Source: an uncultured Acidobacteriota bacterium (GTDB lineage Bacteria; Acidobacteriota; Polarisedimenticolia; J045). Taken from it: 64,000 nucleotides of DNA. Shown in pieces: positions 36,096 to 59,999 of this stretch. Numbering within the stretch: the stretch's first letter is position 1; every line of letters begins with the position of its first letter. The notes under the pieces were generated by a model. That model did not search any database and had not been told where the DNA came from. It saw only the letters and a list, made by a program, of their open reading frames with translations. Position numbers and translations under genes: made by a program. The stretch is taken from contig CAVPCQ010000018.1 in NCBI GenBank assembly GCA_963702425.1, positions 155,901 through 219,900 of the forward strand, read 5' to 3'.

Positions 36096-36330
36096 GACAC
36101 CTCCGGAGCGGGGTCGAGTCGCGCGATTCTACGGGAGGAAGTTGGCGCCGCTCCCCCCGCGGCCGGGGTCCGATCACCGCGAGCGGCCCCAGGGGCGTGG
36201 CAGACGGCGGCTTCCGAACCCTTCCGTCCCGCGGTACGATGACTGCGATTGCCGATGCGGGACGGTCGTGCGCTCGCGGACCGTCCGCGCCGCCACCCGC
36301 ACGCTACGCTCCCCGCGAGGAGTGACCCCG

Positions 36331-36898: not shown

Positions 36899-37047
36899 CG
36901 TAGTGGCGCCGGCCAAACCGCCGGCGCCTTCGCCTCCAGCGCCTCGAGGTGTAAGATCACTCCGGTTGCCACTGCGGGACGAACTGCGCCACGCAAACGG
37001 TCCGTGCTGCCGTGCCCGCGCTACGCTCCCCGGGAGGAGTGACCCCG

Positions 37048-37614
37048 ATGTCGGAACCGGGCCGCCAGCGTCTCTTGACCTACGCGGACTACGCCGCACT
37101 TCCCGACGACGGGCATCGCTACCAGCTCCTCGAGGGGGAACTGGTCATGACGCCGTCGCCGAACCTGTGGCACCAGGAGATCTCGATCCAACTCGCCTCC
37201 GAGCTGCTGAGATACGTTCAGACGCGCGGCCTCGGCCGCGTTTTCGCCGCCCCCCTCGACGTCACGCTGGACGACCGCAACGTCCTCCAGCCGGACATCC
37301 TGTTCGTATCGAAGGAAAGGTCAGGCATCCTGCAGGGGGGCCGGGTCGTCGGGGCCCCTGACCTGTGCGTCGAGATCCTCTCGCCCGGCACGCAGCGCAT
37401 CGACCGCGTGCGCAAGCTGGAGCTGTACGCGCGCTTTGGCGTGACGCACTACTGGATCGTCGATCTCGACACACGGACGATCGAGGAGTACGTCCTGGCC
37501 GGAGAGGTCTACCGCGTGCGAAGCATCACGGCGTACGATGCGCCGTTCCGGCCCGCGGCGCTGCCGGGGTTCGAGTTCCGGCTGAGCGTGGTGGGACTGC
37601 CGGATGGAGAGTGA
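37048..37614 (+). CDS. Uma2 family endonuclease, copy 2
   Basis: Same motifs, intact 188 aa; GAGGAG RBS. Confidence 0.9.
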   Translation: MSEPGRQRLLTYADYAALPDDGHRYQLLEGELVMTPSPNLWHQEISIQLASELLRYVQTRGLGRVFAAPLDVTLDDRNVLQPDILFVSKERSGILQGGRVVGAPDLCVEILSPGTQRIDRVRKLELYARFGVTHYWIVDLDTRTIEEYVLAGEVYRVRSITAYDAPFRPAALPGFEFRLSVVGLPDGE

Positions 37615-37762
37615 CGCAGTGGTGCCGACCGAACCGCCGGCGCCTTCGACTCCACCGCCTCGAGGTGTAAGATGACTCCGGTTGCCACTGCGGGACGAAC
37701 TGCGTCACGCGAACGGTCCGTGCTGCCGTGCCCGCGCTACGCTCCCCGCGAGGAGTGACCCG

Positions 37763-38329
37763 ATGTCGGAACCGGGCCGCCAGCGTCTGTTGACCTACGC
37801 GGACTATGCCGCCCTTCCGGACGACGGGCATCGCTACCAGCTCCTCGAGGGGGAACTGGTCATGACGCCGTCGCCCAACCGGTGGCACCAGGAGCTTTCG
37901 GCCCAACTCCTCACCGCGCTGGTGAACCACGCGCAGAAGCACGACCTCGGCCGCGTCTTCGCCGCCCCCCTCGACGTCACGCTGGACGACCGCAACGTCG
38001 TCCAGCCAGACATTCTGTTCGTATCGAAGGAAAGGTCAGGCATCCTGCAGGGGGGCCGGGTCATCGGGGCCCCCGATCTGTGCGTCGAGATCCTCTCGCC
38101 CGGCACGCAGCGGATCGACCGGGTGCGCAAGCTGGAGCTGTACGCGCGCTTTGGCGTGACGCACTACTGGATCGTCGATCTCGACACGCGGACGATCGAG
38201 GAGTACGTCCTGGCCGGCGACGTCTACCGCGTGCGGAGCATCACGGCGTACGATGCGCCGTTCCGGCCCGCGGCGCTGCCCGGCTTCGAGTTCCGGTTGA
38301 GCGTGGTGCCGCTGCCGGACGGGGCCTGA
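37763..38329 (+). CDS. Uma2 family endonuclease, copy 3
   Basis: Same motifs, intact 188 aa. Confidence 0.9.
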   Translation: MSEPGRQRLLTYADYAALPDDGHRYQLLEGELVMTPSPNRWHQELSAQLLTALVNHAQKHDLGRVFAAPLDVTLDDRNVVQPDILFVSKERSGILQGGRVIGAPDLCVEILSPGTQRIDRVRKLELYARFGVTHYWIVDLDTRTIEEYVLAGDVYRVRSITAYDAPFRPAALPGFEFRLSVVPLPDGA

Positions 38330-38406: not shown

Positions 38407-39549
38407 TCAGCGATACTCCCCGGCCCAGAGCGCCTCGAGGAAATGCGTGAGCGGGACGACCTCGATCTTCTCGACGCGCCGCGGCCGTGCGTGCAGGCCG
38501 ACGCAGACCAGCCGCTTGAACCGCTTCTCGTCGGCGAGCGCGCGGAGCGAGCGGAGGTCCTGGGGCGCGATCGTCGGCTTGGCCTTGACCTCGATCGCCG
38601 TGTGGTCGCCCAGCAGGAAGTCGACCTCGTATCCCGACGCGGAACGCCAGTAGCGCAGCGGCTCGCCGGATCGATAGTCCACGAAGCTGAGCAGCTCGTG
38701 CATGAGGAGCGTCTCGACCGCCGCACCGTACTCGGGCGTTCCGGGCTGGGCTTCCCGACCCTGCAGCGAGCCGACCACCCCGACGTCGAAGAAGTAGTAC
38801 TTGGACGAGACGATGGGCCGGCGCGTCTTCGACTCCCGCCACGCCGGGAGTTCGTGGAGCAGCAGCGTGTCTTCGAGGATCCGGAAGTACTCGTAGACGG
38901 TCGTGCGCGGCACCTGCGCGTCGTTCGACACCGCCGTGAAGTTGACCATCGTGGCGTTGCACAGCGCGGCGACCTGCAGGAAGCGGCTGAAGGCCGGCGC
39001 GTTGCGGGTGAGACCCTCGGCGAGGACCTCCTGCTGGAGATAGACGCCCGTGTACGCCAACAGGTCCGCGCGCGGGTCATCGGAGAAGTAGATCGACGGC
39101 AGGAGGCCGCGGGCCACCGCGCGCCGCAGGTCGAATCGCGGGCCGAGTTCCGCCGAGGTGAGTGGGTGAAGATGCTTGACCCGTGCCCGTCCGCCGAGCA
39201 GGTTCACGCCGCCGGCGCGCAGCCGCCGCGCGCTCGACCCGGTCAGCAGAAAGCGCACGCCCCGGGACTCGATCAGTCGGTGGATTTCGTTCAGCAGTTC
39301 GGGCAGCCGCTGGATCTCGTCGACGACGACCATCTTCTCGTCGCCGATCTCCTGGGCGATGAGGCCGGGGTTCCGGCTCAGCGCAAGGAAGGTCGCGGAG
39401 TCGAGAAGGTCGTAGACCCGGACATCCCCCAGCGTCTTGCGGATCAGGAACGTCTTGCCGGTCTGGCGGGGGCCGAGCAGGAAGTGACTCTTCCGCTCGA
39501 GGAGCGAGCGCAGGTCGAGCGTTCTCGGGACGTTCGGCTCCGTCGGCAT
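38407..39549 (-). CDS. AAA+ ATPase (AAA_14) with DUF4143 domain
   Basis: GPRQTGKT, VVVDEIQ, LTGSS, KYYFFDVG, YWRSASGYEVDFL...AIEVK. Confidence 0.9.
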   Translation of the reverse strand: MPTEPNVPRTLDLRSLLERKSHFLLGPRQTGKTFLIRKTLGDVRVYDLLDSATFLALSRNPGLIAQEIGDEKMVVVDEIQRLPELLNEIHRLIESRGVRFLLTGSSARRLRAGGVNLLGGRARVKHLHPLTSAELGPRFDLRRAVARGLLPSIYFSDDPRADLLAYTGVYLQQEVLAEGLTRNAPAFSRFLQVAALCNATMVNFTAVSNDAQVPRTTVYEYFRILEDTLLLHELPAWRESKTRRPIVSSKYYFFDVGVVGSLQGREAQPGTPEYGAAVETLLMHELLSFVDYRSGEPLRYWRSASGYEVDFLLGDHTAIEVKAKPTIAPQDLRSLRALADEKRFKRLVCVGLHARPRRVEKIEVVPLTHFLEALWAGEYR

Positions 39550-39552
39550 TGT

Positions 39553-39589
39553 CGTCATTTATCATGATGATTGACGATTACGCTGTCAA
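39553..39589 (-). promoter_or_regulatory. Sigma70 promoter with overlapping palindrome for the AAA gene
   Basis: Minus strand TTGACA-17-CATGAT; imperfect inverted repeat 39553-39576 centred on TCATGA. Confidence 0.6.
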
Positions 39590-39698: not shown

Positions 39699-42600
39699 CT
39701 AGGGACAGGCCCCGGGCGCAGCCCCGATCTCCGCGTCCCGCGCACCCGTCTGCCCGGCACCACCGTCGTCGTAGGTCCCGGTCCCCACGCAGTTCGCCGC
39801 GCGGACGAGGTACCAGAATCCATCCGCGAGCGACGGCGTGGCCCCGTCATCCACGGCCGTCGAGGCCAGGTCGTTCGCGAGGCAGCGGTCGGTCGCGGAC
39901 GTGAAATTGCCGGCCGTCCCGCCGAGCACCGACAGCGTCCCGCCGACGACGTCGTACGCCGATGCGGAGACGAGCCCCGGCCAGCTCAGGTGTGCAGTGC
40001 CACCGACCGGCTCGACCGCGAGTCCCGCGACCCCGCCCGGCACGACAAAGCCATCGTCGACGAGCGTGTCGCAGTCGTTGTCCAGGCCGTCGCAGAGCTC
40101 CGACGCGCCCGGGAAGATGGCCGCGCTGGCGTCGTTGCAGTCGCCTCCGCACTCGGAAACGCCGTCGCTGTCGTCGTCGCTGGCGTGGCCGAGGGCGTAG
40201 AGGCCGCCGCTGTTCAAGGTGTTACTCCCGCCGCCCTGGGTCACCCCCCCCCAAATCACCGCGTCAGAACCCGTCCAGACGCTGGTGTGCTCAATGCGAG
40301 GCGTCGGCACCGCGGCCAGCGATGTCGGCAGCCACGCATCGGACACGGGATCGTAACGGCCGCCGGTGTTCAGTGCGGTCGAATCGTTGCCGCCGCCCCA
40401 GACGATCATCCGGCCGGCGCCCCAGACGGCCGTGTGGCCGCTGCGAATCTCGGGTGCCCCGACGGTCGACGTTGCGAGCCACGTGTTTCCGGCCGGATCG
40501 TAGCGGCCGCCGGTGTTCAGCCTGGTCGAACCGTTCTCGCCGCCCCAGACGACCATCCGACTGCCGGTCCAGACGGCCGTGTGCGCATTCCTCGCCGAGG
40601 GGGCACCGTCTGTCGACGTGAGCGCCCAACTGTCGCTGACCGGATCGTAGCGGCCGCCGGAGCGGAGGAAGGTGGCACCGCGCAGCCCACCCCAGACGAT
40701 CATCCGGCTCCCGGTCCAGACGGTCGAGTGGCGTTGCCGTGCCGGAGCGGCTCCGACCAGCGATGTCGCCGTCCAGCTGTCGCCGGTCGGATCGTATTGC
40801 CCTCCGGTATTGAGGTCGTTGATACCGTCTGTGCCGCCCCAGACGATCATCCGGCTGCCCGTCCAGACCGCTCCGTGCAAGTCTCTGGCCGAGGGGGCGC
40901 CCGTCATCGAGGTGGGGGTCCAGCGGTCCGCGATCGGGTCGTAGCGCCCTCCGCTGTCATAGCGGACCCTACCGTCACTTAGGCCGGTGCCGCCGCCCCA
41001 GACCACCATCTCGCGTCCGGTCCAGACGGCGGTGGCCACGGAGCGCGCCTCGGGTGCGCCGCTGAGTGTCGTGGGGGTCCAGGTGTCCAGGGTGGGGTCG
41101 TAGCGTCCTCCATCTTGGAGCTCGCCCGCCCTTCCTCCTCCCCAGACGACCATCAGGGTGCCAGTCCAAACCGCCGCATGAAGCGGTCTCGGCCCTGGGG
41201 CGCTCGATACGTTCGTCGGGGTCCAGCTGTCGGTGAGTGGATCGTAGCGGCCACCTGTGTTCCCAGAGCCAGCGGAGACGTTTCCGCCCCAGACGATCAT
41301 CTCGGTGTCCGCCCAGACCGCGGCGAACTCGGCGCGAGCCGCCGGCGCGCCGTTCATGGAGGTGGGCGACCATGAATCGCCGACCGGGTCGTAGCGGCTC
41401 CCGTCATCGAACTTGACGTAATCGCCGTCGTAACCGCCCCAGACAATCATCCGACTCCCGCTCCACACCACCGCGTGCATCCACCGAGCGGCGGGTGCGC
41501 CGGTTGTAGAGGTTGCAGCCCAGTGGTCGAGAGAGGGGTCGTAGCGGCTTCCGTCGTTAAGAGCGACTCCGCCGCCGGCAAAGCCGCCCCAGACCACCAT
41601 TCGGCTTCCGGTCCAAACCGCAGCGACCCGCGAGCGAGCGGCTGGCGCACCGGTTGTACTGGTGGGCAACCACGTGTCGCCGACCGGATCGTACCGGCCA
41701 CCGGTGTTCACGTAATTGCCATCGTGGCCGCCCCAGATGACCATCCGGCTCCCCGTCCAGACGGCACCGTTGTCGTATCGCGCCGTCGGTGCGCCGTTTG
41801 TCGAGGTGGGCGACCACGTATCGCCGGCGGGATCGTATCGCCCACCCGTGTTCATCCGGATGGAGGTGGCATAGTCCTCGCCACCCCAGACGATCATCTG
41901 GTTCCCGGCCCAGACAGCCGTGTGCCTAGCCCGTGCCGCGGGAGCGCCGATTGTCGATGTCGGCGTCCAGCTGTCGGTCGAAGGGTTGTAGCGGCCTCCC
42001 GTGTTAAGGTTTGGGCTTCCGCCCCACACGATCATGACGCTTCCAGTCCAGACGGCCGTGTGACCGCTCCGAGGGCTCGGGGCATCGACGGTAGTGACTG
42101 GCGTCCAGGTGCTGGTCGCAGGATCGTAGCGATCGCCAGTATTGTCGCGAGTGGTTCGGCCTCCCCAGAGGATCATCAGAGAACCAGTCCAGACCGCCCT
42201 GGGGGCGAGACGCGCATCGGGAATGTCGTCAAGCGACCCGTTGTGCCAAGTGTCGTCGGGAAGGCAGGGCGGCTCGTCGGGCGAGCCGCTCGCCGCGACC
42301 CCGGCGAGCGGCGGAAGCGACGCGAGCGGATCGGCAACGGCTTCGACGCGCTCCGCCGCCAGCGTCCCGCGGACCTCGTTCCACCACTCGTCGTACGGCC
42401 GCGGCGACTCGCCGGCCTCCGCGCCGCCCGCGTGGAAGCTCCGCACCAGCCGGTCCACCAGCGCCGGCCGCGCCAGGCACTCCTGGACCAGGAACGGATC
42501 GTTCCCGAGCGCCGCCCACAGCTCGGCCAGCCGCCCCGGCATCCGGCTCTCCCGCGCCTGCCGCTCCATCTCGCGCCGCAGCTGTTCCGCCGTGACCGGC

Positions 42601-42852
42601 GCGTGCCAGAACCGCTCGAGCGCCGCCGACTGCTCGAGGTAGGTCCGCACCTTCCGCTCGATCACCTCCCGCGGCACGGCCTCCTCGAACGGCGCCGTGG
42701 CCCCGATCTGGTGGGAGTAGTAGACGCGCTCGATCGCCTGCCTGGGCCGCGATGCGCTGTTCGAACGTGAGGTCGCCGGCGTGAGCCAGCGATCCGCAGA
42801 GGGAAACGGCCACCAACGCGGCCACCGAAACGCCGAGACGCCAGGTCTTCAT
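39699..42852 (-). CDS. Secreted Kelch-repeat protein (14 repeats) with MopE-like metal-binding motif and conserved C-terminal domain; frameshift near 42742
   Basis: Signal MKTWRLGVSVAALVAVSL; repeats R..HTAVWTGS.MIVWGG...NTGGRYDP; DCNDASAAIFPGASELCDGLDNDCD; ends PGACP. Confidence 0.85.
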
Positions 42853-42921
42853 GACGGTCCTCCCACGACCACCGAACGACGCGCCTCCCCGTGTCCGGGT
42901 GCGGTACGCGCCTACTCGTGC

Positions 42922-42947
42922 AGTGTCCGAAACGAAGGCACTGTGAC
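42922..42947 (-). promoter_or_regulatory. Putative ECF promoter GTCAC-N15-GACACT (Kelch gene)
   Basis: Same boxes and spacing at 43649-43674 (+) and 50513-50538 (-). Confidence 0.65.
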
Positions 42948-43112
42948 CACGTTCTCCGCGAAGCCAAGCCCAGGTCGCAGGAGCTTCCCCCTCGAGGTCT
43001 CCCGCAGCCCCCAGGCCTCGGTGCTACCCTCGCCCGTCCCCGGCAGTCTCCCCTTGAAGTGCCAGCGCACCTGTCCTACACCTATCGCGATCCCGCCGAG
43101 GGCCCCCGACCC

Positions 43113-43676
43113 GTGTCCGACGACTCGCTGCGCCTCGTGGAACGGCTCCGGGCCGGCGATGCCGAGGCGGAGCGGCATTTCCACGAGACCTACGGGCATC
43201 TCGTTCGCCGGCTGGCCCTGGGCCAACTCTTCGACGCCGAGACGGCGCGGGACATCGCCCAGGAAGTGCTGCTGGTGACCATCGTGGCCATCCGGAACGG
43301 CACGATCCGTCACGAGAACAACCTGGGAGGGTTCGTCTACGGAACGGCCCGGAACGTGATGCACGCGTGGCAGCGCAAGCGGAACCAGGAGGAGCGCCTG
43401 AGTGGCCCCGCGCGGTTCTCCGATCCTCCTGCCGACCCGGTGCCGGACCCGGACGAGGAGGCCCGGGTGGAGCAGGCGATCCGCGAGATCCGCCGGCTCT
43501 CCCACGCGGACCAGCAGATCCTCCACTGGTCCCTGGTCGAGGGAATGACCTCGGAGGAGATCGCAGAGCGGCTCGGCATCACGCCCGCGGCGGCGCGGAA
43601 ACGGAAGTCCCGAGCTCTCGAGGTTCTCAAGTCACGCCTGCGGCGCCCGTCACGACCGGCGCCGCGGCGACACTGA
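43113..43676 (+). CDS. ECF sigma-70 factor
   Basis: LVERLRAGDAEA, ARDIAQEV (region 2), EEIAERLGITPAAARKRKSRA (region 4). Confidence 0.85.
   Translation: MSDDSLRLVERLRAGDAEAERHFHETYGHLVRRLALGQLFDAETARDIAQEVLLVTIVAIRNGTIRHENNLGGFVYGTARNVMHAWQRKRNQEERLSGPARFSDPPADPVPDPDEEARVEQAIREIRRLSHADQQILHWSLVEGMTSEEIAERLGITPAAARKRKSRALEVLKSRLRRPSRPAPRRH
43649..43674 (+). promoter_or_regulatory. Putative ECF promoter inside the sigma 3' end, driving the anti-sigma gene
   Basis: GTCAC-gaccggcgccgcggc-GACACT, 6 nt before the GTG at 43681. Confidence 0.6.
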
Positions 43677-43680
43677 AGGG

Positions 43681-44482
43681 GTGAACGCCGTGCCCTGCAC
43701 GCGGAGAGACCCGGAGCTCATGGACCGCTTCCTTCTCGCCCGATTGAGTCAGGCCGAGCGCGAGTCGTTCGAGCGGCACCTGTTCGAGTGCCCGGAGTGC
43801 GCCGAGGAGATGGAGGCGCTGGAGACCATCCAGGCGGCGTTGCGCAAGGTCCCCGTCGAGGCGGACGCCCGTGTGCAGTGGCGTTCGAGATGGTTCGTCG
43901 CGGCCGTGGCTGCCGCGGCGTGCGTGGCCGCGGTGGCTTTCGGGCTCTGGCTCGTGGCTCCGCGCCCGCAGACCGTCGCCCGCGGACTTCCCGCACCAGA
44001 GCCGCCCCCCTCGCCCGCACCGGCCGTGCCCGAGAAGGCCCCGTCCGTCTCCCCCGATTTGTTCGCGCTGGCCGAGATCCGCCCGCCCGCCTACAACCCC
44101 ACGGTCCTTCGCGGGGGCACGGACGACGCCGACAACGATTTCCGGAAGGCCATGGAGGCGTACCGCAGGAGCGACTACGCCGCCGCGATCCCCGGGCTGC
44201 GAGCGGCCGCCCAGCGCGCCCCGGGGGACCCGCGCCCGGCGTTCTACCTGGGGGCCTGCCAGTTGCTCATCGGCGACATCGACCGCGGCGTGTCCACACT
44301 GGAAGGACGTCGTGGCACTCGGCGACACCCCCTACCTCGAGGAGACGCACCTCCTGCTGGCCAAGGCGCACCTCTGGCGAGGGGAGCGGGAGCAGGCCAG
44401 GGACGAGCTTCGTTCCGCGCTCGCGTTGAGTGGGGACCACGAGAGGGAGATCCGGCGCCTGCTCCAGGCTCTCGACGAGTGA
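43681..44482 (+). CDS. Anti-sigma factor: zf-HC2, TM helix, extracytoplasmic TPR; frameshift near 44300
   Basis: FERHLFECPEC (HxxxCxxC); TM; AMEAYRRSDYAAAI, FYLGAC, LLLAKAHL. Confidence 0.8.
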
Positions 44483-44543
44483 CCGGACTGCGTTGAGCCA
44501 GGTTGCATGGACGTGCCCCTGCAAGGCGGCGCCGTCCCGGTCG

Positions 44544-45765
44544 TCACCTTCGCGTTCGCGGCGCTCCTCCTTGCCGGCGTCGGGCCCGTGACGGCGCCGG
44601 TACCAGGGTCTCGAGGAGTTCGGGAACCGTCAGCGCCCGCACGCCGGGAGCGACGGTCGCGATCGGAGGAGCCATCGACGACGAGCGGTGCACGATCAGT
44701 GCGTCCAGCCGTGGACCCTGTGCCGCCCGGGAGAGTCGAAGGAGAGCCGTTGCGTCGCCGGGCATGATCGTCCGGCTGGCCTTGGCTTCGACGAACAGCA
44801 GGTGGCCAGCGTCCCGGGGCACGATGAAGTCGACCTCGAGTCCCTGCTGGTCGCGGAAGTGGTAGAGATTCCGGGGACGCCCCGCGTTGAGCTGCGCCTT
44901 GACGATCTCCGATGCGACGAACCCCTCGAAGAGCGGCCCCAGGAACGGCGATCGCTCCAGGTCCCGGGCCGATTCGAGGCCGAGGAGATGGCAAGCCAGG
45001 CCGGAGTCCGAGAAGTAGACCTTGGGCGCCTTCAGCAGCCGCTTGCCGAAGTTCTCGAAGTACGGCGGAACGAGGATCACGAGCCCGGTCGTCTCGAGAA
45101 TCGCCAGCCAGTCGGTGATCGTCGGAACGGAGACGCCGAGCGGCGCGGCGAGATCGGTCCGGTTGAGGATCTGGCCCGTCCGGGCGGCCAGCACGGCCAG
45201 GAAGCGCCGGAAGGTCGTGAGGTCGCGCACCGCCGACATCGCGCGCACGTCCCGCTCGAGGTAGGTCTGGACGTACGAACGGAACCAGAGTGCCGAGCTG
45301 GCTGGGCGCGCGAGGGCCTCGGGGAAGCCTCCCCGCAACAGCCCGACCTTCGTCGATTCGGCCGAGGAGAAGGGCATCAACTGAAGGATGGCCGCGCGTC
45401 CCGCCATCGACTCCGAGACGCCACGCATCAGCGGCGCATCCTGGGATCCGGTCATGAGCCACTGTCCGTTGACGCCTCGGCCCCCGATCGATCCTCGTCC
45501 GGATGTAGTTCAGCAGTTCGGGCGCGTTCTGGACCTCGTCGAGAATCACCGGCAACGCGAGACCATCGAGAAACCCGCGCGGGTCGGCCTTCGCACGGGC
45601 CAGGAGGTCGGGATCCTCGAGAAGGACGTACGCTGCGGCCGGGAAGAGCCGGCGCAGCAGGGTCGTCTTTCCGGCCCGGCGGGGTCCGGTCAGGAGAACG
45701 GCCGGGAAGGCGCGGGCAGCAAGCTCGACTTGTCCGGCGAGCGCTCTTTCGATGTACCTCATCAT
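44544..45765 (-). CDS. AAA+ ATPase with DUF4143 domain (frameshift near 45470)
   Basis: GPRRAGKT, ILDEVQ, TGSQ, ESMAGR, TYLERDV, PKVYFSDSG, EVDF...VEAK. Confidence 0.88.
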
Positions 45766-45799
45766 TGAGAATCCTAAGGTAATAGCTTAGGAATCTCAA
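45765..45799 (-). promoter_or_regulatory. Palindromic sigma70 promoter/operator of the AAA gene
   Basis: TTGAGAATCCTAAG-N7-CTTAGGAATCTCAA; minus strand reads TTGAGA-17-TAGGAT-5-ATG. Confidence 0.65.
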
Positions 45800-45847
45800 G
45801 CCCAAGCGATCGCCGTGATCGTCCGGCCGCCCACGCCCCTCCGCCCG

Positions 45848-48800
45848 TCAGCGCCAGTCGCCGATGGCGACGAACGCGCCCCAGTAGAACGGGTGCGTGT
45901 CGAGCTGCCGGGCCCTGCGGCTCCGCAGGACGGCCAGGCTGGCGTCCCGCACGGCCTCGGCCGTCGACCTCCCCTTGCCGAAGCCCGACTCGTAGAGCGC
46001 CGTCATCCACTCGCGCGCCGACCGGTCCTCGACCGGCCAGAGGCTCATGATGACCGTGCGCGCGCCCGCGATCTGGAACGCGCGCGGCAGCCCGAGGACC
46101 CCTTCGCCGGACTGGATCCGGCCGAGGCCGGAGTCGCAGCCCGAGAGAACGGCCCAGCGCGCGCCCCGGAGATCGAGCGAGGCGATCTCCTCGGCGGTGA
46201 GGATCCCGTCGTCCTGATCGGCGGTGGTACCGGCCCGGAGGTTGGCCCCGGCGAGCGCCATTCCCGATGCGGCGGGACCGGGCAGGGTCCCGTCGGCCGA
46301 GGCCGCGAAACAGTCCGTGCCCAGCACGAACCCATGCGTGGCCAGGTGGATGATCTCTCGTCCTGGTCCCAGGAGCTTGACCGCGGTCTCGCTCGCGTAG
46401 GTGCCGGTCAGCGCGACCGCGGATCCGTCCCGCGCCTGGTCGCGCGACCAGATCGACTTCACCTCCGCCACCTCCTCGGCCGTCTGCGGGATCGGTCCGA
46501 ACCTGGCGGAACGGAAGCGTTCGCAGGTCGCCACGCCGCCGCGGTAGGTCTCGCCCGCGACCTGCAGGACCGCCGAAGGCGCAGCCGTTGCGGCCGCGGC
46601 GACGATCGCTTCGGACGCCGCTCCCGGCCGATCGAAGCTGGGATCGCCGAGCGCGAGGAGCCCCGTCCCGGGCGGCTCGTTGCCGACGATGATGTCGCGC
46701 TCCGTGCCCAGCAGGTGCAGCAGCATCGGCCCTTCGACGAGGTAGCGTCCGTTCGCGTCGGGCAGGGTCGCGAAGTCGATCGTGTTGATCGCGCCCTCGG
46801 GCACGATGAACACGCGGCGCGACTTCCCGAGGAAGGGCACGAGCGGATCGAAGATCCGCGCTCGAAGCGCCGAGGCCGCCTTCCGGTAGGAGCGCTCGAG
46901 CGCCCGGCCGGACCGTCCGTCCGCTTTCGGGACGTCGGCGATCCGCTCGCGCACCTGCCGGACGAGGTCGTCGATCTCGCGGCCGGCTCCGAGCGGGACG
47001 AGTGCCGGCGGCCGGCCCCCCGATGACACGAAGGCCGCGTAGGACGGGACGGCATCCTTCACCAGGGGCGCGGCGTCCTTCTCGTCGCTCCGTGCCGGCT
47101 GGCGCTCGTAGAGCACGAAGCCGATCAGCGCGTCGCCGGGCCCCAAGGCGGCGGTGACCTCAGCGAGGCCCGCCAGGCGCCGAGCCCGCTCGAGCCGGAA
47201 CGCCTCGTCCTTCTCCACGAGCTTCTGCTCGACGCTGCCCACCTCGGCCCGCAGCGCCTTCGTCTCGAGCTCGTAGGCGGCCGGATCGTCGCCCGGTCCG
47301 CGAACCACGCACCGCGCCAAACGCGCCCGGGCCTTCGTGACGTCCTCGAAGAGCCGGCGAACCTCCGGATCCTCGGACGAGGCGAGACGGCGGTGGCGCT
47401 GCGCGACGTTGTCGAAGACCACGGAGCGCGAGCGGATGACCCCGTCCCACGCGCGCGCCGTCCACTCGGGCCGCGCGTCGCGGCGCACGCTCGCCAGCGT
47501 GATTGCGAGATCGGCCCCGCGCGTCAGGGACTCCTCGTAGAGCAGGGCGTCGCGCTCGGGGATCGACTGGGCCGCCAGCGCCAGGTGGGTGGTCGCGATC
47601 CGCTCGGTCTCGACGGCCGTGTCGAACGCCTCGTCCAGCTTCCCCGCGCGCGCCAGGGCCTCGCCGAGGCCCGCCAGCGGGCTGGTCCGGGCCGGGTCGT
47701 CGGAGCCGCCGAATTCCTGCCACGCGGCGACGGACTGGCGCAGGTACTTTTCGGCGTTCGCGAGGTCCCCCCGGTCCAGCGCGAGCCGCCCCAGCAGCTC
47801 CAGGTTCTCGGCGGCGGCGCCGGATCCGGCCTCCTTTTCGGCGTAGATCACTGCGGCCCGCTCGGCGAACTCGCGCGAAGCGGCGAGATCGCCGCGGTCC
47901 CGCGCGAGCTCGGCGAGGAAGTGGTAGCACTCGGCGACGTACGGGGAGCCGGGGACGTTCCTCTCGCGGATCGCCAGCGCTTTCCGGTAGTACTCGTCCG
48001 CGGCCGCGTGCCGGCCGGCCAGGCGCTCGATGTTCCCCATCCCGACGTACTCGATCGAGGTGTCGAGCGACCCCGGGTCCTTGCGCTCGAGCCGGGCGAG
48101 CGACTCGCGGCCGTAGCGCTCGGCCGCGTCGAGGTTTCCGGCCCGGTACTCCAGCTCGCGCAGGTTCCCGAGCGCGAAATCGCACGGGTCGATGTCGAGC
48201 TGCCGCTCGCGGCAGGTCTCCAGCACCTGTTCGTACATCGCCCGGGCCTGCCCGAACGCGAGCAGTTCGCTGTGTACGTTCGCGACATTGACCTGGTAGG
48301 GGATCAGGACCTCGGGGGGCGCGCCGAGCTTCTCCTGGGCCGCGAGGGCGCGCTCGAGGTAGGGGCGCGCCTGGTCGAGGTCTCCGCGCACGAAGTAGTT
48401 GACGCCGAGATTCTTCAGCGCGGAGGCGACGCTCGCGCTGTCGGGATCGGTCTGTTCGCGGATCGCCAGCGCGCGGAGCTGATGCTCCTCGGCGCGCGCG
48501 TAGTCCCCGAGCCGGACCTCGGCGATGCCCAGCGACGACAGCGTGCCGGCGATCTCGCTGGGTGGGGCGCCGATGCTGTCCTGCAGCGCGAGGAGTTCGC
48601 CGTAGTGCGTCGCCGCCGACTGGAAGTCCTGCTCCGCGAAGGCCACCCGGCCCAGCCCGGCAAGAGCGCGAACGTGCTCCCGCGACCCTGGCGCCGTCTC
48701 CGACGCGAGCGCCAGGGCTTCAGAGTAGCGCGCGCGCGCCTCCGTCAGCGTGCCGGACTGTTCGAGCGACTGCGCCTCGTCGAGCAGGCGCTGGAGGGTG

Positions 48801-48961
48801 CCCGTCGGCGCCGCGGCGCCGGGCTCCTCGGTCGGGCCCGCGGAAGGACCCGCGGACGACGCCGGAGCCGCCGCGCCCAGGAGGAGCAGCGCCAGGAGGC
48901 CAGCCGAGGTCAGCGGTCGGACGAGCCTTCGTGAAATGCCACGCGAACGTCCGGCGGACAT
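45848..48961 (-). CDS. Exported TPR-CHAT (caspase/HetF-like) protease
   Basis: Signal peptide LLALLLLGAAAPA; many TPRs; IHLATHG and VLSGCDSG (His/Cys dyad); SLWPVED, PFYWGAF. Confidence 0.9.
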   Translation of the reverse strand: MSAGRSRGISRRLVRPLTSAGLLALLLLGAAAPASSAGPSAGPTEEPGAAAPTGTLQRLLDEAQSLEQSGTLTEARARYSEALALASETAPGSREHVRALAGLGRVAFAEQDFQSAATHYGELLALQDSIGAPPSEIAGTLSSLGIAEVRLGDYARAEEHQLRALAIREQTDPDSASVASALKNLGVNYFVRGDLDQARPYLERALAAQEKLGAPPEVLIPYQVNVANVHSELLAFGQARAMYEQVLETCRERQLDIDPCDFALGNLRELEYRAGNLDAAERYGRESLARLERKDPGSLDTSIEYVGMGNIERLAGRHAAADEYYRKALAIRERNVPGSPYVAECYHFLAELARDRGDLAASREFAERAAVIYAEKEAGSGAAAENLELLGRLALDRGDLANAEKYLRQSVAAWQEFGGSDDPARTSPLAGLGEALARAGKLDEAFDTAVETERIATTHLALAAQSIPERDALLYEESLTRGADLAITLASVRRDARPEWTARAWDGVIRSRSVVFDNVAQRHRRLASSEDPEVRRLFEDVTKARARLARCVVRGPGDDPAAYELETKALRAEVGSVEQKLVEKDEAFRLERARRLAGLAEVTAALGPGDALIGFVLYERQPARSDEKDAAPLVKDAVPSYAAFVSSGGRPPALVPLGAGREIDDLVRQVRERIADVPKADGRSGRALERSYRKAASALRARIFDPLVPFLGKSRRVFIVPEGAINTIDFATLPDANGRYLVEGPMLLHLLGTERDIIVGNEPPGTGLLALGDPSFDRPGAASEAIVAAAATAAPSAVLQVAGETYRGGVATCERFRSARFGPIPQTAEEVAEVKSIWSRDQARDGSAVALTGTYASETAVKLLGPGREIIHLATHGFVLGTDCFAASADGTLPGPAASGMALAGANLRAGTTADQDDGILTAEEIASLDLRGARWAVLSGCDSGLGRIQSGEGVLGLPRAFQIAGARTVIMSLWPVEDRSAREWMTALYESGFGKGRSTAEAVRDASLAVLRSRRARQLDTHPFYWGAFVAIGDWR

Positions 48962-49179
48962 CGTCGACCACCCCCCTGCCCGTCGCAGGCCGGCTTCGCT
49001 GCGACACTGCGGCGCATTCTGCGGAGGCCGGTGTGGGCGATTCAAGCGGCCACGGGCGGCGGCGAGGAACCCGGGCGCCGCGGTCGGCGATCCAGACCGC
49101 GCTTCAAGACGCGCCGTAGCCCCTCCTCGGCGCGCAAGAAAACGCGGTCCGGACCGCCTCTCCGGCGACCCCCTGCCGA

Positions 49180-50457
49180 TCACTGCCTCCAGCCGAAGCG
49201 CAGGCCCGTCGGCGCGACGGCGTCGGCGACAGTCGCCTGCCCTGACGGCGAGACGCCCACCGCCGTGAACGAGCTGTGCAGCACTTCCACGAGCTCGGAG
49301 ACCCAGACCTGCGCATCCTTGTCCCAGTAAGCGACGCGGGTTTCGGAGGTCGCACTGGGGTCTTTCCAGTTGTGATACCCGACGTAGGGAACGCCTGTGG
49401 ATGAGAAGGTGAGCGTCGCGTCATGCCGCAGTAGTCGCAGGGATCGATGAAGCTGGTGGTCCATCCTCCGCTCCCCTTGCGGGTGAAACGCGCGCCGTCG
49501 CTCGGGGTGCCGGAATGGACGATCACCGGTTCACCGGTGAGCGGATCGAACGCGAGATCGCAATTGACGCCCATCCCCCGTTCCGGGCCCTCCACGAGTT
49601 CCTTCGACCAGCTCGCACCCCTCGTGGCGTACCAGAGGGAGTCGAGCAACCCGGTCGCCATCGCTGTCGCTGGAGTAGGAGATCGCCGCGACCCCGGAGA
49701 ACGAGAAGGCGATCGAGACATAGCGCGTTATTGCAGCGCTGTCCACCGTTTCGATGACCCAGCCCGTGCTCCCGCGACGGGCGAATCGGACCGGTTGCGT
49801 CTTTCGACTGGTGACCGTGTAGGCCACGGCGGGATTGCCGGCCGGGTCGTACGCGATCGCCGTGAGCTCCCCGACGGTCTTGTCGACGGACTCGATCGTC
49901 CAGCGAGAGCCCGACTTCCTTGCGACCTTCAGGGTGGAGCTCGATCGCCAGCTGATGGCCGGTTCCCCGTTGGAGCTGTATGCGAGACTCGTCCCCGTGA
50001 CGTCTCCGCCGCTGACATCTTCGATCGTCCACGAGGTCCCGTTCCAGTGCGCGAATCGCAGGTTCCTGCCCGCAGGGTAGGCGATGGAAGGCCTCCCATC
50101 GATCGGATCGTAGGCCTGGGAGACGTAATACCCTCCCGCCGCATCCACCAGTTCGGTCGTCCAGGTCGCGGCCGTGAGGGACTCGGCGGGCACGGTCGGA
50201 GCGGGGGCCGCGGCGTCTCCTTCCGGCTCCAGGAGAACCGCCGTCTGCCCGCCCACCGAAGCGGCGGCCAGCCACCGCGCTTCCGCCGAGGATTGAACCT
50301 TCGGCGCGCCGGTCAAAGTAGCTTCCGGTGTGGTCACGTAACTCTCGGCGCCGACCCGCATGGCAGGGTCCGCCCGCTCGGGTGGCTGCGCGATCACGCC
50401 TGGGCACAGCGCCACGATTGCCAACACGAGCAGCGTCCGCTTCAGGTTCCTCTGCAT
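49180..50457 (-). CDS. Secreted beta-propeller-like repeat protein (frameshifts near 49655 and 49425)
   Basis: Signal MQRNLKRTLLVLAIVALCPGVIAQ; repeats W.IE.VD...SLAYD..G.P.ISY. Confidence 0.7.
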
Positions 50458-50512
50458 CACATCCCCCTTCCTCGACCGGCCTCGCGACCAGCCACACTCG
50501 CCTCTAGCGAAT

Positions 50513-50538
50513 AGTGTCCCGAGTGGCTCGCCTGTGAC
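50513..50538 (-). promoter_or_regulatory. Putative ECF promoter GTCAC-N15-GACACT
   Basis: About 55 nt upstream of the 50457 start; spacer differs from the other copies. Confidence 0.65.
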
Positions 50539-50566
50539 CACGTTCTCCGGACCCACCTGTCGTGCC

Positions 50567-50996
50567 GGTGTACGATGGCTCCGATTCCCGATGCGGGACG
50601 GTCGCCTCCCCGCGGGCCCGCCGCGTCGTCGCCCCCCTCGACCTCACGCTGGACGACCGCAACGTCGTGCAGCCGGACATCCTGTTCGTCTCGAACGCGC
50701 GGTCCGGAATCCTGCAGGCAAGCCGCGTCATCGGCGCTCCCGACCTGTGCGTCGAGATCCTCTCGCCCGGCACGGAGCGGATCGACCGGATGCGCAAGCT
50801 CGATCTGTTTGTGCGCTTCGGCGTGACGCACTACTGGATCGTCGATCTCGACACGCGGACGATCGAAGAGTACGCCCTGGCCGGCGACGTCTACCGCGTG
50901 CGGAGCATCACGGCGTACGACGCGCCGTTCCGCCCCGCGGCGCTGCCCGGGTCTGAGTTCCGGCTCGGCGTGGTGCCGCTGCCGGACGCGGCCTGA
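50567..50996 (+). pseudogene. Uma2 copy 4, 5'-deleted (leader fused to APLD...)
   Basis: Leader TACGAT...TGCGGGACGGTC joins directly to the C-terminal two-thirds; the downstream 65 nt match 38330-38395. Confidence 0.8.
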
Positions 50997-51062
50997 CGAG
51001 GCTTCGGGCGCGAACCGGCGGTCGAGACCACGTTTCCTGACGCGCCGGTGCTGCCCTCGGCG

Positions 51063-51313
51063 AGTCTTCGACTCCCGCCACGCCGGCACGTGTCGGGTGA
51101 GTCACTCGACAAGGGCCTCCTGCTGGCGACAGACGCCCGTGTGCGCCGTCAGGTCCGCGCGCTCGACCCGGTCAGCAGCAAGCGCACGCCCCGGGATTCG
51201 ATCAGCCGGTGGATCTCGTTCAGCAGTTCGGGCAATCGAGAAGGTCGTAGACCCGGATCTCCTCGAGCGTCCTGTGGATCAGGAACGTCTGGCTGGTCTG
51301 GCGGCGGCCTGCC
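51063..51313 (-). pseudogene. Deleted remnant of the AAA-DUF4143 gene at 38407-39549
   Basis: Pieces PAWRESKT, PELLNEIHRLIESRGVRLLLTGSSAR, TFLIHRTLEEIRVYDLLD. Confidence 0.8.
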
Positions 51314-51722: not shown

Positions 51723-54700
51723 ATGATGACCTTCCAGAAACGGATACATGAGGGTTCGTGCAGGATCGTCACTGGGCTCGTCGTCGTGCTGTTGCTTTCC
51801 GGCGTCATGGTGCTGGCCAGCGAACCGCCTCGGCGAGTCTCGCGGTCACACGCTGGGAACGTCCCGCTGCTGGGTCTGACATTCGAGCCCGGTCCGCGCG
51901 CGTTCCCACAGCCAGATCGCGAGCGGGCCGACTTCGGACCGGATTCGCGCGGCCAGAATTTCCTGGACCTGCCTACGCCCGAGATCTCGGTGGGCCTGCT
52001 CACGGGTTCCCTGCCCTCGCATGACCTGGCAGCCAGCGTCTTCGGGAAGACGAGCGGAGAACTGGTGCTCCTCACGCACGAGAGTTACGCCCTCAAGGCA
52101 GCCTACTCGTCCAACAACGGTGCGACCTTCGGCGGCGAGAAGATCGTCGCCGGCCCGGACCCGCCGGTCATCGGGTTCAGCGCAACGCTCGCGGGGGACG
52201 GCAAGCTCTACGCCGCGTACTTGTTCGGTGACTCGGGTGGCGACGTCGGAATCCGCTTCCAGCGAAGTGATGATACGGGGCGGACCTGGACGGCGCCCGT
52301 GAGCCTGGTCAAGCGGGGCGACGCGACGCATGGCGTCTCCGCCCTGTACGCGATCGCTGCGAACAGCAGCGGCCGGGTCGCGGTGATCTTCGATGAATTG
52401 TGGGAGGGCCGTCACGTCTACGTCATGACGAGCACGGACGGCGGCGCAAACTGGAACGGTCCGGTCCGCGTCGACGCAACGGACGATTTCAACGCCGGGA
52501 TCACGGGCGCCGACGTGACGGTTGGAAGCAACGGCTGGGTGCACGCAGCATTCACTCAGGCTCGCGGCGGCATGCCCCAGGTCTGGTACGCACGTTCCAA
52601 GGACGGGGGCGTGAGCTTCGAGACCGAGAGGAATCTCGACTTCCTGCTCCTCGGTCGGCCACAGCCACCACTGGAACCACCGGCCGGCTCCGACCTGCCC
52701 GACATCGAGATCGCGAACGACGGGAGCGTTCTCCTCACGCTCTGGGACAGTTGGGAGGCCGACTATGTCCATCTCCTTCGCTCGTCGAATGGTGGAGACG
52801 CATTCACCCTGGTCGTCTCCGCCTACATGGACGCGAGCGACACGCCCGCTGAGCCCCGGATTTGGGTGGCTCCCGGAACGAACACGCTGCTCCTGGGGTG
52901 GGTTCGGTGGGATGGCCGGCTGCAGGTGACGCGTTCGGCGGACAATGGCGCCACGTGGGGCCTTTCCCGGCTCTTGGCCAACGCCGCCAACACTTTCGCG
53001 GCGGTCCGTACCGGCGGGACGAAGTGGGCCGTCGCCTGGGAGGACAGGCGGAACGCCGGGATGAGATCGACGTTCACAGACATCTACGTTCGCGTTTCGA
53101 CCGACGACGGGTCCACCTTCGGCGCCGAGCAGCGCGCGGACCGCGACGCCGCGGGCGCGAGCGAAAGCAGGCTGGCCGGGCTTGCCGCCTGCGGCGCGGA
53201 TACGTTTTTCGCCTCGTACCTCGATCGGCGCCCGAGCCCGAACAGTACCAACGTCTGGGCAAACCGCTCGGCGGTGAGCCCGTTCGATCTCTCGTCGAAC
53301 GAGCGGCGCGTGGACGCGGATACCTGGACGGACAACGCGCTGCAGTACAGCGACGCCGCCGTGACGACGGACGGCGCCGATCACGTCTACGTGGCCTATT
53401 CCAGCATGCCCGTCGGCCCATGGCCGGACCTGTACGTCGCGGCGAGCGCCGATCGGGGACGCACGTTCTCCCAGGCCATCCGGGTGAGCACGAGCCCGCC
53501 CGGGACAGCGGAGTACACCCGACCGATGCTCAGCGCCCACCCCGACGGCACGGTGTACGCCGCCTACACCCGGGAGACGGCCACGGCCTTCCAACTCGTC
53601 GTCAATCGCTCACGGGACTTTGGCCGGACCTGGCTCGCGACGGAGAAGCTGATCGCGACCCCCAGCACGAAGGACTTGGCACTGGCGAGCGTCCCGGGAG
53701 GAAAGGTCTATCTCGCGTACGAGATGGGCAACAACATCCATCTTGCACGCTCGTCCAACTACTTCGACTCATTCACGGACACGGACGTGGACCAGAACGA
53801 CACGGGGTACAACGAACGTCCGAAGCTCTGCGCGCAGGGCGACCAGGTCATCCTCGTCTTGCACAGTCCGAATGTCGCGATCACGGCCTGGAGCGTCTGG
53901 GGAACCGTGAGCGCCGACGGGGGAGGAACGTGGTCCTCGAGCGTCCAGCTCCGGCCGGAGGGAATCCCGGGTGCAGCGGACTACCTGGACCTGGCTTGCG
54001 ACGGAACCAACGCCGGTGTGGCGGTCTGGTCCGATAACCGATCCCAGGGTATCAAGGTGTACGCCAATCGTTATGACGGCAGCGCGTGGATTGGCGATGT
54101 CCTCGTCAGCGACGTGCCGGACGCATACGTGCCGCGGGTCGCGTTCTACTCGGGTACGACCGGCGTCGCCGTCAGCTACGGCGACGAGAGTTCGGTCTGG
54201 CTCAGCGTCTCGAACGATGGAGGCGCGAGATGGCTGATCACTCAGCGTCTCGATGACGCCGCCCCGCAGCCGCTCGCGGCATCCGCCGCCCCGTTCACGC
54301 TCAGCGACAGGGCTGGGAACATCTGGGTCGTCTGGACGGACTACAGTGCCGGGTACCCTTCCGTCGCGGTCAGGTGGTCCGGCGACGGAGGCGAGAGCTT
54401 CGGTCCCGTGTACCGGGCCAACCGGGAGCAGCCCCAGGGATCCCGGGCCAGCGTGATCGACTGGTTCCAGTTCCAACCGGCCGCAGCGTCGCCGGGGGTC
54501 GCGCACCTCGCGTTCGCTGGAGAACGGTCGTCCAGCGCCTTGGATACCCGCATCAACGCCTATGAAGCGAATGACATGGACCGCGACGGCGCCTCCGCGC
54601 ACACCGACTGCAACGACCAAGACGCGCTGTCGTGGGGCGCGCCCGCCGAAGTGGCTGGCCTGCGGGTCTCGAGGGGGACGAGCGCGGCGCGCCTGGACTG

Positions 54701-54980
54701 GACGTCCCAGGCGGCCGCGGCCGGCCCCGGCACCGCCTACGACATCGTGACTGGATACGTCGCGGACCTGCTCGCGAGCCGCTCGTACGGCGCGGCGAGT
54801 TGTCTCGCGTCCGTTTGGCCCGCCCCGCCGTACGATGACTCGCGGACCGGACCGCCCGCGCGCGACAGCTTCTACTACCTCGCGCGAGCGAAGAACGGCT
54901 GCGGGACCGCGACGTACGGCAACTCGAGTTTGGATCCGGACCCGCGGGACGCGCTCGACGGGAATGCGCCCTGCCCCTAG
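51723..54980 (+). CDS. Secreted BNR/Asp-box propeller protein with conserved C-terminal domain
   Basis: Signal peptide; more than 10 Asp boxes (SDDTGRTW, STDGGANW, SADNGATW); ends PDPRDALDGNAPCP. Confidence 0.85.
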   Translation: MMTFQKRIHEGSCRIVTGLVVVLLLSGVMVLASEPPRRVSRSHAGNVPLLGLTFEPGPRAFPQPDRERADFGPDSRGQNFLDLPTPEISVGLLTGSLPSHDLAASVFGKTSGELVLLTHESYALKAAYSSNNGATFGGEKIVAGPDPPVIGFSATLAGDGKLYAAYLFGDSGGDVGIRFQRSDDTGRTWTAPVSLVKRGDATHGVSALYAIAANSSGRVAVIFDELWEGRHVYVMTSTDGGANWNGPVRVDATDDFNAGITGADVTVGSNGWVHAAFTQARGGMPQVWYARSKDGGVSFETERNLDFLLLGRPQPPLEPPAGSDLPDIEIANDGSVLLTLWDSWEADYVHLLRSSNGGDAFTLVVSAYMDASDTPAEPRIWVAPGTNTLLLGWVRWDGRLQVTRSADNGATWGLSRLLANAANTFAAVRTGGTKWAVAWEDRRNAGMRSTFTDIYVRVSTDDGSTFGAEQRADRDAAGASESRLAGLAACGADTFFASYLDRRPSPNSTNVWANRSAVSPFDLSSNERRVDADTWTDNALQYSDAAVTTDGADHVYVAYSSMPVGPWPDLYVAASADRGRTFSQAIRVSTSPPGTAEYTRPMLSAHPDGTVYAAYTRETATAFQLVVNRSRDFGRTWLATEKLIATPSTKDLALASVPGGKVYLAYEMGNNIHLARSSNYFDSFTDTDVDQNDTGYNERPKLCAQGDQVILVLHSPNVAITAWSVWGTVSADGGGTWSSSVQLRPEGIPGAADYLDLACDGTNAGVAVWSDNRSQGIKVYANRYDGSAWIGDVLVSDVPDAYVPRVAFYSGTTGVAVSYGDESSVWLSVSNDGGARWLITQRLDDAAPQPLAASAAPFTLSDRAGNIWVVWTDYSAGYPSVAVRWSGDGGESFGPVYRANREQPQGSRASVIDWFQFQPAAASPGVAHLAFAGERSSSALDTRINAYEANDMDRDGASAHTDCNDQDALSWGAPAEVAGLRVSRGTSAARLDWTSQAAAAGPGTAYDIVTGYVADLLASRSYGAASCLASVWPAPPYDDSRTGPPARDSFYYLARAKNGCGTATYGNSSLDPDPRDALDGNAPCP

Positions 54981-59085: not shown

Positions 59086-59373
59086 CCCATCCTCCCCCTT
59101 CACGCTGTGCGCCATTCTAGTCCCCCAAGCGCCCGAAAAGGGAAGCGTGGGCTGTCGAGGACGCAGGGGATCGCGGGCGACAGACGGTTCGAGGCCGTGA
59201 CGTCGCCGAAGAGACGGTCTGCATCCGGATGCCGGGGATGGACACCGCGTTCGTCAGTAGACGCCCAACCGAGCGCGGTCGTCTCGGAGGCGGGATCGAC
59301 GCGACCCCGGTTTCAGATGCCGTGCGACCGCGAGATCCCGCAGCTCGAGAAGGCGCTCGAGGCGCGCGGTTCA

Positions 59374-59810: not shown

Positions 59811-59999
59811 GAGATCCCCCCCTCAGCCCGGGATGCGCCCTGCCGGAGTGGTCCTGCAAGGGAAGCGTTCCGAGCGGGGCGCTTGCGACGGCGGACCGTC
59901 CGCTCATCTCCCGCCAGGGCCACCCGCGGCAACGGTGCCCTCAGCGACACCCCCTATCTCGAGGAGCCGGGCTCGGAGCCCGGCCGTCCTGCGGGCGCG

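Follow-up and report, generated by a model that had tools for sequence, protein, structure and literature searches.

A putative split, two-protein relative of the DdvS/DdvA sigma switch, with a conserved candidate promoter motif, in an uncultured Acidobacteriota bacterium

The window analysed here is a stretch of 64,000 nucleotides (nt) from the genome assembly of an uncultured Acidobacteriota bacterium (GCA_963702425.1, contig CAVPCQ010000018.1, positions 155,901 to 219,900 of the forward strand; 5.1 Mb in 42 contigs, 71% GC, 91% complete). It contains, clustered with each other, the genes of a sigma factor of the extracytoplasmic function (ECF) type, of a putative membrane anti-sigma factor with a tetratricopeptide repeat (TPR) ectodomain and of a probably exported TPR-CHAT protease, together with copies of the bipartite motif GTCAC-N15-GACACT. 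In an earlier interpretation, made from the letters of the window and hereafter called the sequence-only reading, these elements were proposed to form an envelope circuit in which the CHAT protein cleaves the anti-sigma factor and thereby induces secreted propeller proteins. We compared the locus with related loci in genomes and metagenomes, with predicted structures and with published systems.

Results

The genes and other features of the locus are collected in Table 1. The assignment of the gene at 43113 to the ECF sigma factors is upheld by the Pfam matches of regions 2 and 4; in NCBIfam, only the ECF superfamily model scores above its cut-off for this protein. The next gene had been read as that of a transmembrane anti-sigma factor with a TPR domain, starting at 43681. 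The domain assignment stands, both zf-HC2 and TPR being recognised by Pfam, but the start does not: GTG 43690 is the more likely start codon because it matches the M-x-C start of homologues, and with this start the preceding motif copy ends 15 nt and not 6 nt before the gene.

Table 1. Features of the locus. Positions are those of the window; aa, amino acids.
Feature	Position	Strand	Remarks
Secreted Kelch protein with MopE-like repeat	39699..42852	-	Pfam Kelch, Cu-binding_MopE; first gene behind the divergent motif; frameshift near 42739
Motif copy 1	42922..42947	-	Divergent from sigma; 69 nt before Kelch ATG; 13.9 bits; same position in L025
ECF sigma factor, 187 aa, without C-terminal extension	43113..43676	+	Pfam Sigma70_r2, r4_2; TIGR02937 above cut-off
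Motif copy 2	43649..43674	+	Within sigma 3' end, towards anti-sigma; 18.4 bits
Anti-sigma factor	43690..44482	+	Pfam zf-HC2, TPR; frameshift near 44307
Linker motif L-x2-LA-x-(I/F)-(E/R)PP-x-Y-x-P-x2-LRG	44059..44115	+	Ends Arg141-Gly142; candidate cleavage site
AAA_14/DUF4143 ATPase	44544..45765	-	Two frames; PADLOC candidate PDC-S01; between convergent anti-sigma and CHAT genes
Exported TPR-CHAT protease (putative), 1037 aa	45848..48961	-	Pfam; conservation in 108 sequences; model
Terminator-like hairpin	49144..49157	-	About 20 nt past propeller stop, before CHAT
Secreted BNR-like beta-propeller	49180..50457	-	Signal peptide; first gene behind copy 3; frameshifts near 49653 and near 49420
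Motif copy 3	50513..50538	-	55 nt before propeller ATG; 16.7 bits
Decayed motif copy (putative)	59864..59889	-	Duplicated segment: Uma2 remnant, motif, signal-peptide remnant; 7.6 bits

The predicted anti-sigma protein comprises a zinc-binding domain (C3, H30, C34, C37), one transmembrane helix (residues ~68-90), a proline-rich linker and an ectodomain of three TPRs. Among 30 aligned anti-sigma factors the H-x3-C-x2-C part is invariant and the N-terminal Cys is present in at least 90%, and zinc binding is predicted. The model of the anti-sigma factor of locus L083 consists of a zinc-domain bundle, a transmembrane helix, an extended segment and three TPRs. In a fold search the TPR domain matches generic three-TPR domains, DdvA of Myxococcus xanthus (see Discussion) being absent among the matches listed, and the alignment indicates conserved positions on the surface of this domain. 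From what is known of the family and from the homology to DdvA, the protein very probably acts as a membrane anti-sigma factor.

The Arg of the linker motif is present in 27 of the 30 aligned anti-sigma factors, and the Arg-Gly pair in 22 of them. The three Arg-less proteins and both long metagenome loci that lack a CHAT gene share one sigma clade (97/91 support); the loss of the Arg and the absence of CHAT in this clade are a single event. This clade (L080, L092, L067 and their kin) has the sigma gene and the motif, its anti-sigma frames are of 76-86 aa or have long Arg-less linkers, and no CHAT gene is present in its two long contigs. An RseP-like M50 peptidase is encoded in the host genome (E 2.3e-67).

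The third protein is built of a signal peptide, a TPR superhelix and a CHAT domain with His876 and Cys942, a Cys813/Cys884 pair and a disordered loop containing Arg807-Gly808. The intact dyad noticed in the sequence-only reading is a constant feature, the catalytic His and Cys being present in 108 of 108 aligned CHAT sequences. Besides the catalytic Cys, the Cys813/Cys884 pair is invariant and may form a disulfide. The loop Arg and Gly are found in 104 and 106 of the 108 sequences, respectively. In the model of the protein (mean predicted local distance difference test score, pLDDT, 86.6) the values fall below 50 at 795-811, which includes this loop, and helices 498-584 precede the CHAT sheet, as read without residue-level superposition. 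A hydrophobic N-terminal stretch occurs in 71 of 99 full-length homologues as against 9 with such a stretch in a control window, by a crude hydropathy measure and not a signal-peptide predictor, and thus the protein is probably exported, as had been suggested. At another place of the host genome (C17, ~217400-224300; L106) a TPR-CHAT gene has a zf-HC2-like gene two genes upstream; the two may belong to a second trio from another family.

Single-base frameshifts interrupt the genes of the anti-sigma factor (44307), the Kelch protein (42739) and the propeller (49653). In contigs of close relatives, which come from four studies, the extra bases at 42739 and 49653 are missing in 4 of 4 runs and that at 44307 in 3 of 4, the remaining run having a depth of 0 there. 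In the related locus L025, the Kelch gene is uninterrupted and in a single frame. One 9-kb contig of a relative is collinear with positions 41500-49704. It is thus probable that errors of the assembly account for the three frameshifts; the order of the genes is real.

The three exact copies of GTCAC-N15-GACACT reported in the sequence-only reading, at 42922-42947 (-), 43649-43674 (+) and 50513-50538 (-), are present as described; 100 shuffles of the window gave a mean of 0.02 copies and never three. There is no further exact copy elsewhere in the genome, and the variants found genome-wide are two exact matches with a 16-nt spacer and 20 one-mismatch matches at 15 nt. One-mismatch copies at C29:32012 (+) and C40:54372 (-) lie in apparently non-coding DNA before possible start codons and are candidate distant targets. 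The spacers, which had been called unrelated, are not so in all cases: the two minus-strand copies have the 17-mer GGAGAACGTGGTCACAG in common and may on this account be one duplicated promoter. The degenerate copy at 59864-59889 had been placed before a paralogous remnant; indeed, it aligns in register with the 50538 site before a paralogous signal-peptide remnant and is homologous to it, but looks decayed, because it scores 7.6 bits as compared to 13.9-18.4 bits for the three real sites. The motif variant of the window is nearly palindromic and therefore gives rise to weak overlapping sites in the opposite direction, at 42925-42955 (+; 8.6 bits) and 50516-50546 (+; 14.9 bits), one of which faces the sigma gene.

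To assess the conservation of the motif, we took the 80 best among 233 metagenome loci that have a related sigma factor; at 85% identity these group into 54 clusters. Two clusters end at the sigma stop codon, which left 52 to be scored for a motif at the 3' end. In 48 of the 52, GTCAC is present between -70 and +45 relative to the stop codon of the sigma gene; of 162 control windows lying further 5', only 9 contain it. The loci were selected by a region-4 peptide pattern, which favours a common -35 box. GTCAC is also present at the sigma 3' end in all eight genome loci with a close sigma factor, which lie outside the training set, and in none of nine loci of more distant ECFs that were read by eye. 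The independent genome G467 has three GTCAC-N15-GACACT copies at its own locus. In 47 sites the second box is clear, and these give the consensus (T)GTCAC(G/A)A followed, 16-17 nt after GTCAC, by (C)(C)AC(T/A). The ACAC type of the -10 box falls at three places in the sigma tree, and no clear covariation of sigma region 2 with the -10 variant emerged.

The position of these sites in the 3' end of a gene could reflect the encoded peptide. However, of the 362 Ser codons in the bodies of the sigma genes only 24 are TCA, and yet this codon carries the motif in 42 of the 47 sites; the -10 box is situated wholly beyond the sigma stop in 32 sites, and five sites are out of frame or beyond the stop. 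The constraint thus acts on the DNA and is no coding artefact.

A matrix trained only on the 3'-end sites was used to score 430 nt at the 5' end of the sigma genes. Of 45 loci, 25 contain an antisense, i.e., divergent, site of at least 13 bits (18 of 29 when clustered at 70%), a score reached by 1.1% of shuffles, and 1 contains a sense site. In the window, the best sense site before the sigma gene has 8.6 bits; 8 bits are reached by 7.9% of shuffles. The family has two conserved promoters, a divergent one and one before the anti-sigma gene, with no sign of positive autoregulation, and in view of the prevalence of divergent over sense sites the sigma factor seems to drive the anti-sigma gene and secreted cargo and not itself. 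The -35 boxes of ECF41, ECF103 and ECF250 are TGTCAC, like that of the present motif (PMC7826278). The scan of relatives agrees with the proposal that the motif is the promoter of the sigma factor of the window, and we consider this highly likely. Sister sigma/anti-sigma/TPR-CHAT trios in two genomes of the same class, L017 (G075) and L019 (G102), have GGTAAC-N13/14-GGGAAC at the sigma 3' end; in these two examples, read by eye, the GGTAAC box resembles the GTAA box of DdvS.

The clustering of the three genes, likewise, extends beyond the window. The anti-sigma gene adjoins the sigma gene in 42 of 43 clusters with at least 200 nt of downstream sequence. A CHAT domain is encoded in 13 of the 54 clusters and a TPR part in four more; two long loci are devoid of it, and 35 are too short. 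In the genome loci, of which 15-20 kb were fetched, CHAT is present in six of eight, in varying order and orientation, and the tail-to-tail arrangement of the anti-sigma and CHAT genes, as in the window, is found in G253, G390 and G198. The sigma factor, the anti-sigma factor and the exported TPR-CHAT protein are a conserved unit. The AAA_14/DUF4143 gene between the latter two is present in the collinear relative and is no conserved neighbour in those related loci whose genes were read; it is probably a passenger.

A class-wide search detected no close sigma factor in 118 other genomes, including four of the same genus. The anti-sigma profile matches 45 of 401 genomes of the phylum, with E <1e-45 in six besides the host genome, and a single-sequence search of genome contigs gave only five sigma factors, all of them distant. 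The patchy distribution suggests that the system is possibly mobile; no GC island was found at the locus in the window.

With regard to the cargo, 18 chosen neighbours of motif sites in related loci comprise seven proteins with beta-propeller repeats, two outer-membrane barrels, two other proteins and seven without assignment. The genes behind the motif thus appear to encode mostly secreted beta-propellers and outer-membrane barrels, in agreement with the secreted propellers of the sequence-only reading. The propeller gene of the window has no Pfam match, and its similarity to the Atlas BNR_4/SBBP clusters (0.90-0.91, at low recognition) is a lead only. The hairpin past its stop codon is weak, and the scan that revealed it gave 2 such sites as compared to 2.7 by chance; because of this hairpin, CHAT may lie outside the motif-driven operon in the window. 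BNR-repeat paralogues at 27715-30645 and 51723-54980 are secreted and have a C-terminal domain in common with the Kelch protein; this domain recurs many times in the genome. No motif was found upstream of either paralogue.

The independence from CRISPR that had been assumed for the circuit is corroborated by the host genome, in which no Cas1, RAMP or Cas3-HD was found, at a completeness of 91%. Near the locus, PADLOC reports only the candidate families PDC-S01 and PDC-S03, a TPR model and kinase models (the propeller gene excluded).

Discussion

Comparisons with published systems draw here on parts of the cited papers. DdvS/DdvA of Myxococcus xanthus (PMC11506125, PMC6061681; PDB 8ROT, 8RW5) provides the best match to the CHAT-domain profile (DdvA 815-976, E 2.5e-12), the first rank in a Foldseek search with the TPR-CHAT model and the best non-TPR match to the anti-sigma profile (DdvA 9-107, E 3.9e-7). 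As in the present locus, in that system an ECF sigma factor is encoded beside a single-pass anti-sigma factor with a Cys/His/Cys/Cys zinc domain, the TPR-CHAT part with its His-Cys dyad is extracytoplasmic, and several cognate promoters are clustered at the locus. The spacing between the first Cys and the His of the zinc domain is 27-28 here and 22 in DdvA. While DdvA is a fusion of TPR-CHAT to the anti-sigma factor, the TPR-CHAT protein of the window is a separate exported protein, and its gene is convergent with that of the anti-sigma factor. The latter, unlike DdvA, has a small TPR ectodomain of its own, and its homologues end after three TPRs; a search for longer anti-sigma proteins gave no fused form among five matches, which is weak evidence. 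The promoters differ in sequence (GTCAC/(C/A)NAC(T/A) here vs. GTAA-n16-CGT for DdvS; PMC6061681) and in position (between the sigma and anti-sigma genes vs. upstream of the sigma operon, which is driven by one copy), as do the targets (secreted propellers and barrels vs. CBASS and CRISPR systems). The CHAT domain of DdvA is described as being without the three-helix motif of separase and Craspase (PMC11506125). The present locus is from Acidobacteriota, whereas fused forms have been reported from Myxococcota and one Comamonas (PMC11506125). Taken together, these similarities suggest that the locus is a split, two-protein relative of the DdvS/DdvA switch, of the same design but different in fusion, promoter and targets. 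The split form was not found in the literature searched, a search that left out the supplements of the DdvA paper, in which related loci are possibly listed. The sequence-only reading had regarded the known protease/anti-sigma cascades as cytoplasmic; this is false, since DdvA/DdvS is a periplasmic precedent of TPR-CHAT with an ECF sigma factor (PMC11506125).

Two other TPR-CHAT systems are more distant from the present locus than DdvS/DdvA. In the type III-E Craspase system (Csx29, Csx30, CASP-sigma; PMC10028731), TPR-CHAT, anti-sigma and ECF-like sigma are also three proteins and cleavage in trans relieves the inhibition, and Csx29 structures are among the fold matches of the present CHAT; however, Craspase is cytoplasmic and activated by Cas7-11 and RNA, and Csx30 is no membrane zinc anti-sigma factor. 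In the case of ECF54, sigma genes occur with TPR-CHAT genes in a conserved neighbourhood (PMC7826278, supplement), but this group is confined to Actinobacteria, is described without an anti-sigma factor and is associated with the promoter GTATCAG/CTCC and with subtilases (PMC7826278). ECF41, ECF56 and ECF294 have a SnoaL-like C-terminal extension and the -10 box CGTC, whereas the present sigma factor has no extension and only its -35 box is similar (PMC7826278). As in RpoE/RseA/DegS/RseP (PMC10028731), a separate envelope protease would open a membrane anti-sigma factor, and an M50 site-2 peptidase is present; the site-1 step would be carried out here by a cysteine protease of caspase fold and not by a PDZ serine protease.

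By analogy with DdvA and from what is known of the protein families, the following mechanism can be proposed. The cytoplasmic zinc domain of the anti-sigma factor would hold the ECF sigma factor. The exported TPR-CHAT protein would sense an envelope signal through its variable N-terminal TPRs and, acting as a site-1 protease, would cut the linker of the anti-sigma factor, most plausibly at LR-G just before the TPR ectodomain. An RseP-type protease, for which the M50 peptidase is a candidate, would remove the remaining stub and free the sigma factor, as can be deduced from the report that DdvA minus its TPR-CHAT is degraded by RseP (PMC11506125). The freed sigma factor would read GTCAC(G/A)-N15/16-(C/A)(C/A/G/T)AC(T/A), a predicted specificity strongly supported by conservation, and would transcribe divergent genes of secreted beta-propellers or outer-membrane proteins. 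From the promoter in the 3' end of its own gene it would also direct the synthesis of more anti-sigma factor, i.e., negative feedback without positive autoregulation. To this reading as a whole, a split DdvA-like switch with CHAT as the site-1 protease, we assign a probability of roughly 55%. Its central step, the gating of the sigma factor by CHAT proteolysis, is slightly better than an even bet, and the placement of the cut at the Arg of LRG is tentative. In the part consulted of a preprint on Haliangium (bioRxiv 2023.06.23.546230), no cleavage site was found.

The authors of the DdvA study proposed that periplasmic CHAT clips the anti-sigma factor but could not put this to the test, as enzyme and substrate form a single chain there and the signal is not known (PMC11506125). 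In the natural split form, enzyme and substrate can be mixed or mutated separately. The locus family adds a well-supported promoter consensus that can be used in a reporter and a candidate cut site, and the window is an example of the split form with an unusually clear promoter. A still wider proposal is speculative and, in our opinion, rather doubtful: that these loci represent a widespread type of signalling in the envelope that does without CRISPR. The site-1 enzyme would be an exported protease of caspase fold, restrained or matured via an Arg-Gly loop of its own; acting in trans, it would cut the same mark within the linker of the anti-sigma factor, and the ECF sigma factor set free would drive only negative feedback and a divergent secreted-propeller regulon. 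In that case CHAT would be the first caspase-like site-1 protease, and what is only proposed for DdvA would be proved in a two-protein system.

Several observations weigh against the protease-gated switch. The linker motif is modelled confidently (pLDDT 87-90) and, because of this, may be structural and pack on the TPR domain. Genomes G327 and G406, which belong to one family, keep the motif and the Arg-Gly pair and have no CHAT within ~10 kb, although contigs of G327 other than that of the locus contain six CHAT matches. Two tandem exported TPR-CHAT paralogues at C25:47817-54522 (L105), ~50% identical in the CHAT domain and located behind secreted-protein genes, have no sigma or anti-sigma gene nearby, and at least 1420 proteins belong to the CHAT subfamily, so such proteases are found on their own as well. 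With respect to specificity, the residue of separase that binds the P1 Arg, D2151, corresponds to K670 of the Scalindua TPR-CHAT (PMC9729208) and, in a profile alignment via the Scalindua protein with a weak E-value, to Arg983 of the present protein, a position occupied by Arg in 92 of 108 sequences; the S1 residue of separase is thus absent, and Arg specificity of the CHAT protein is not supported by this comparison. Proteolysis by CHAT is unproven in DdvA itself (PMC11506125). Finally, the general promoter matrix is unselective genome-wide, with 45 matches of at least 14 bits, and is too loose for defining a genome-wide regulon.

The TPR-CHAT protein could also be a binding partner that docks on the TPR domain of the anti-sigma factor and shields it like the fused ectodomain of DdvA, until it is released by a signal and the work is done by RseP or by a different site-1 protease; its catalytic site may then serve only for self-processing at its own Arg-Gly loop. 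The TPR-CHAT part of DdvA is indeed a steric block, and dyad mutants still repress (PMC11506125), which together with the near-invariant Arg-Gly of the disordered CHAT loop and the conserved surface of the anti-sigma TPR speaks for such a role. On the other hand, the folded ectodomain of the anti-sigma factor could itself block RseP, the His-Cys dyad is invariant, and anti-sigma factors keep the Arg-Gly pair while being paired with CHATs of different subfamilies, and we regard this explanation as improbable. The same holds for the possibility that CHAT is an output, i.e., a secreted protease of the cargo, which may process propellers or foreign proteins, and that the anti-sigma TPR alone senses the signal. 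The location of CHAT downstream of the motif, directly or behind cargo, in L038, L083, L090 and L140 would fit this assumption, as would loci without a linked CHAT and the stand-alone paralogues; yet CHAT persists while cargo genes vary between loci, it precedes the sigma gene in L029, L094, L099 and L104, the upstream motif of L030 faces away from it, and DdvA unites the same three parts in a fusion. That the motif stems from a constraint on coding or belongs to some other regulator is very improbable, since its appearance as a Ser codon in one reading frame and the possible duplication of two window copies are outweighed by the rarity of that codon, by the sites that lie beyond the stop or in a different frame, by the second, non-coding divergent site, by the bipartite 16-17 nt spacing and by the -35 box of ECF type (PMC7826278).

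Other features of the window

The surroundings of the locus contain five copies or remnants of Uma2 genes (DUF820, PADLOC candidate PDC-S03) at 36234-38329, 50570-50996 and 59997-60404. Three of them are in tandem at a period of 716 nt, and two lie directly upstream of motif copy 3 and of the copy at 59864. The AAA_14/DUF4143 ATPase gene is also repeated, with two genes (38407-39558 and 44544-45765; PADLOC candidate PDC-S01) and the decayed remains of a third (51062-51309). The copies of both families point to insertion and duplication having occurred repeatedly in this region. A gene of a Tricorn-type S41 protease at 32702-36095 spans two frames, probably owing to another assembly frameshift, and that of a polyphosphate kinase at 357-2322 is also split between frames. 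Directly downstream of the duplicated remnant, at 55702-59115, a membrane Ser/Thr kinase with outward TPR repeats is encoded.

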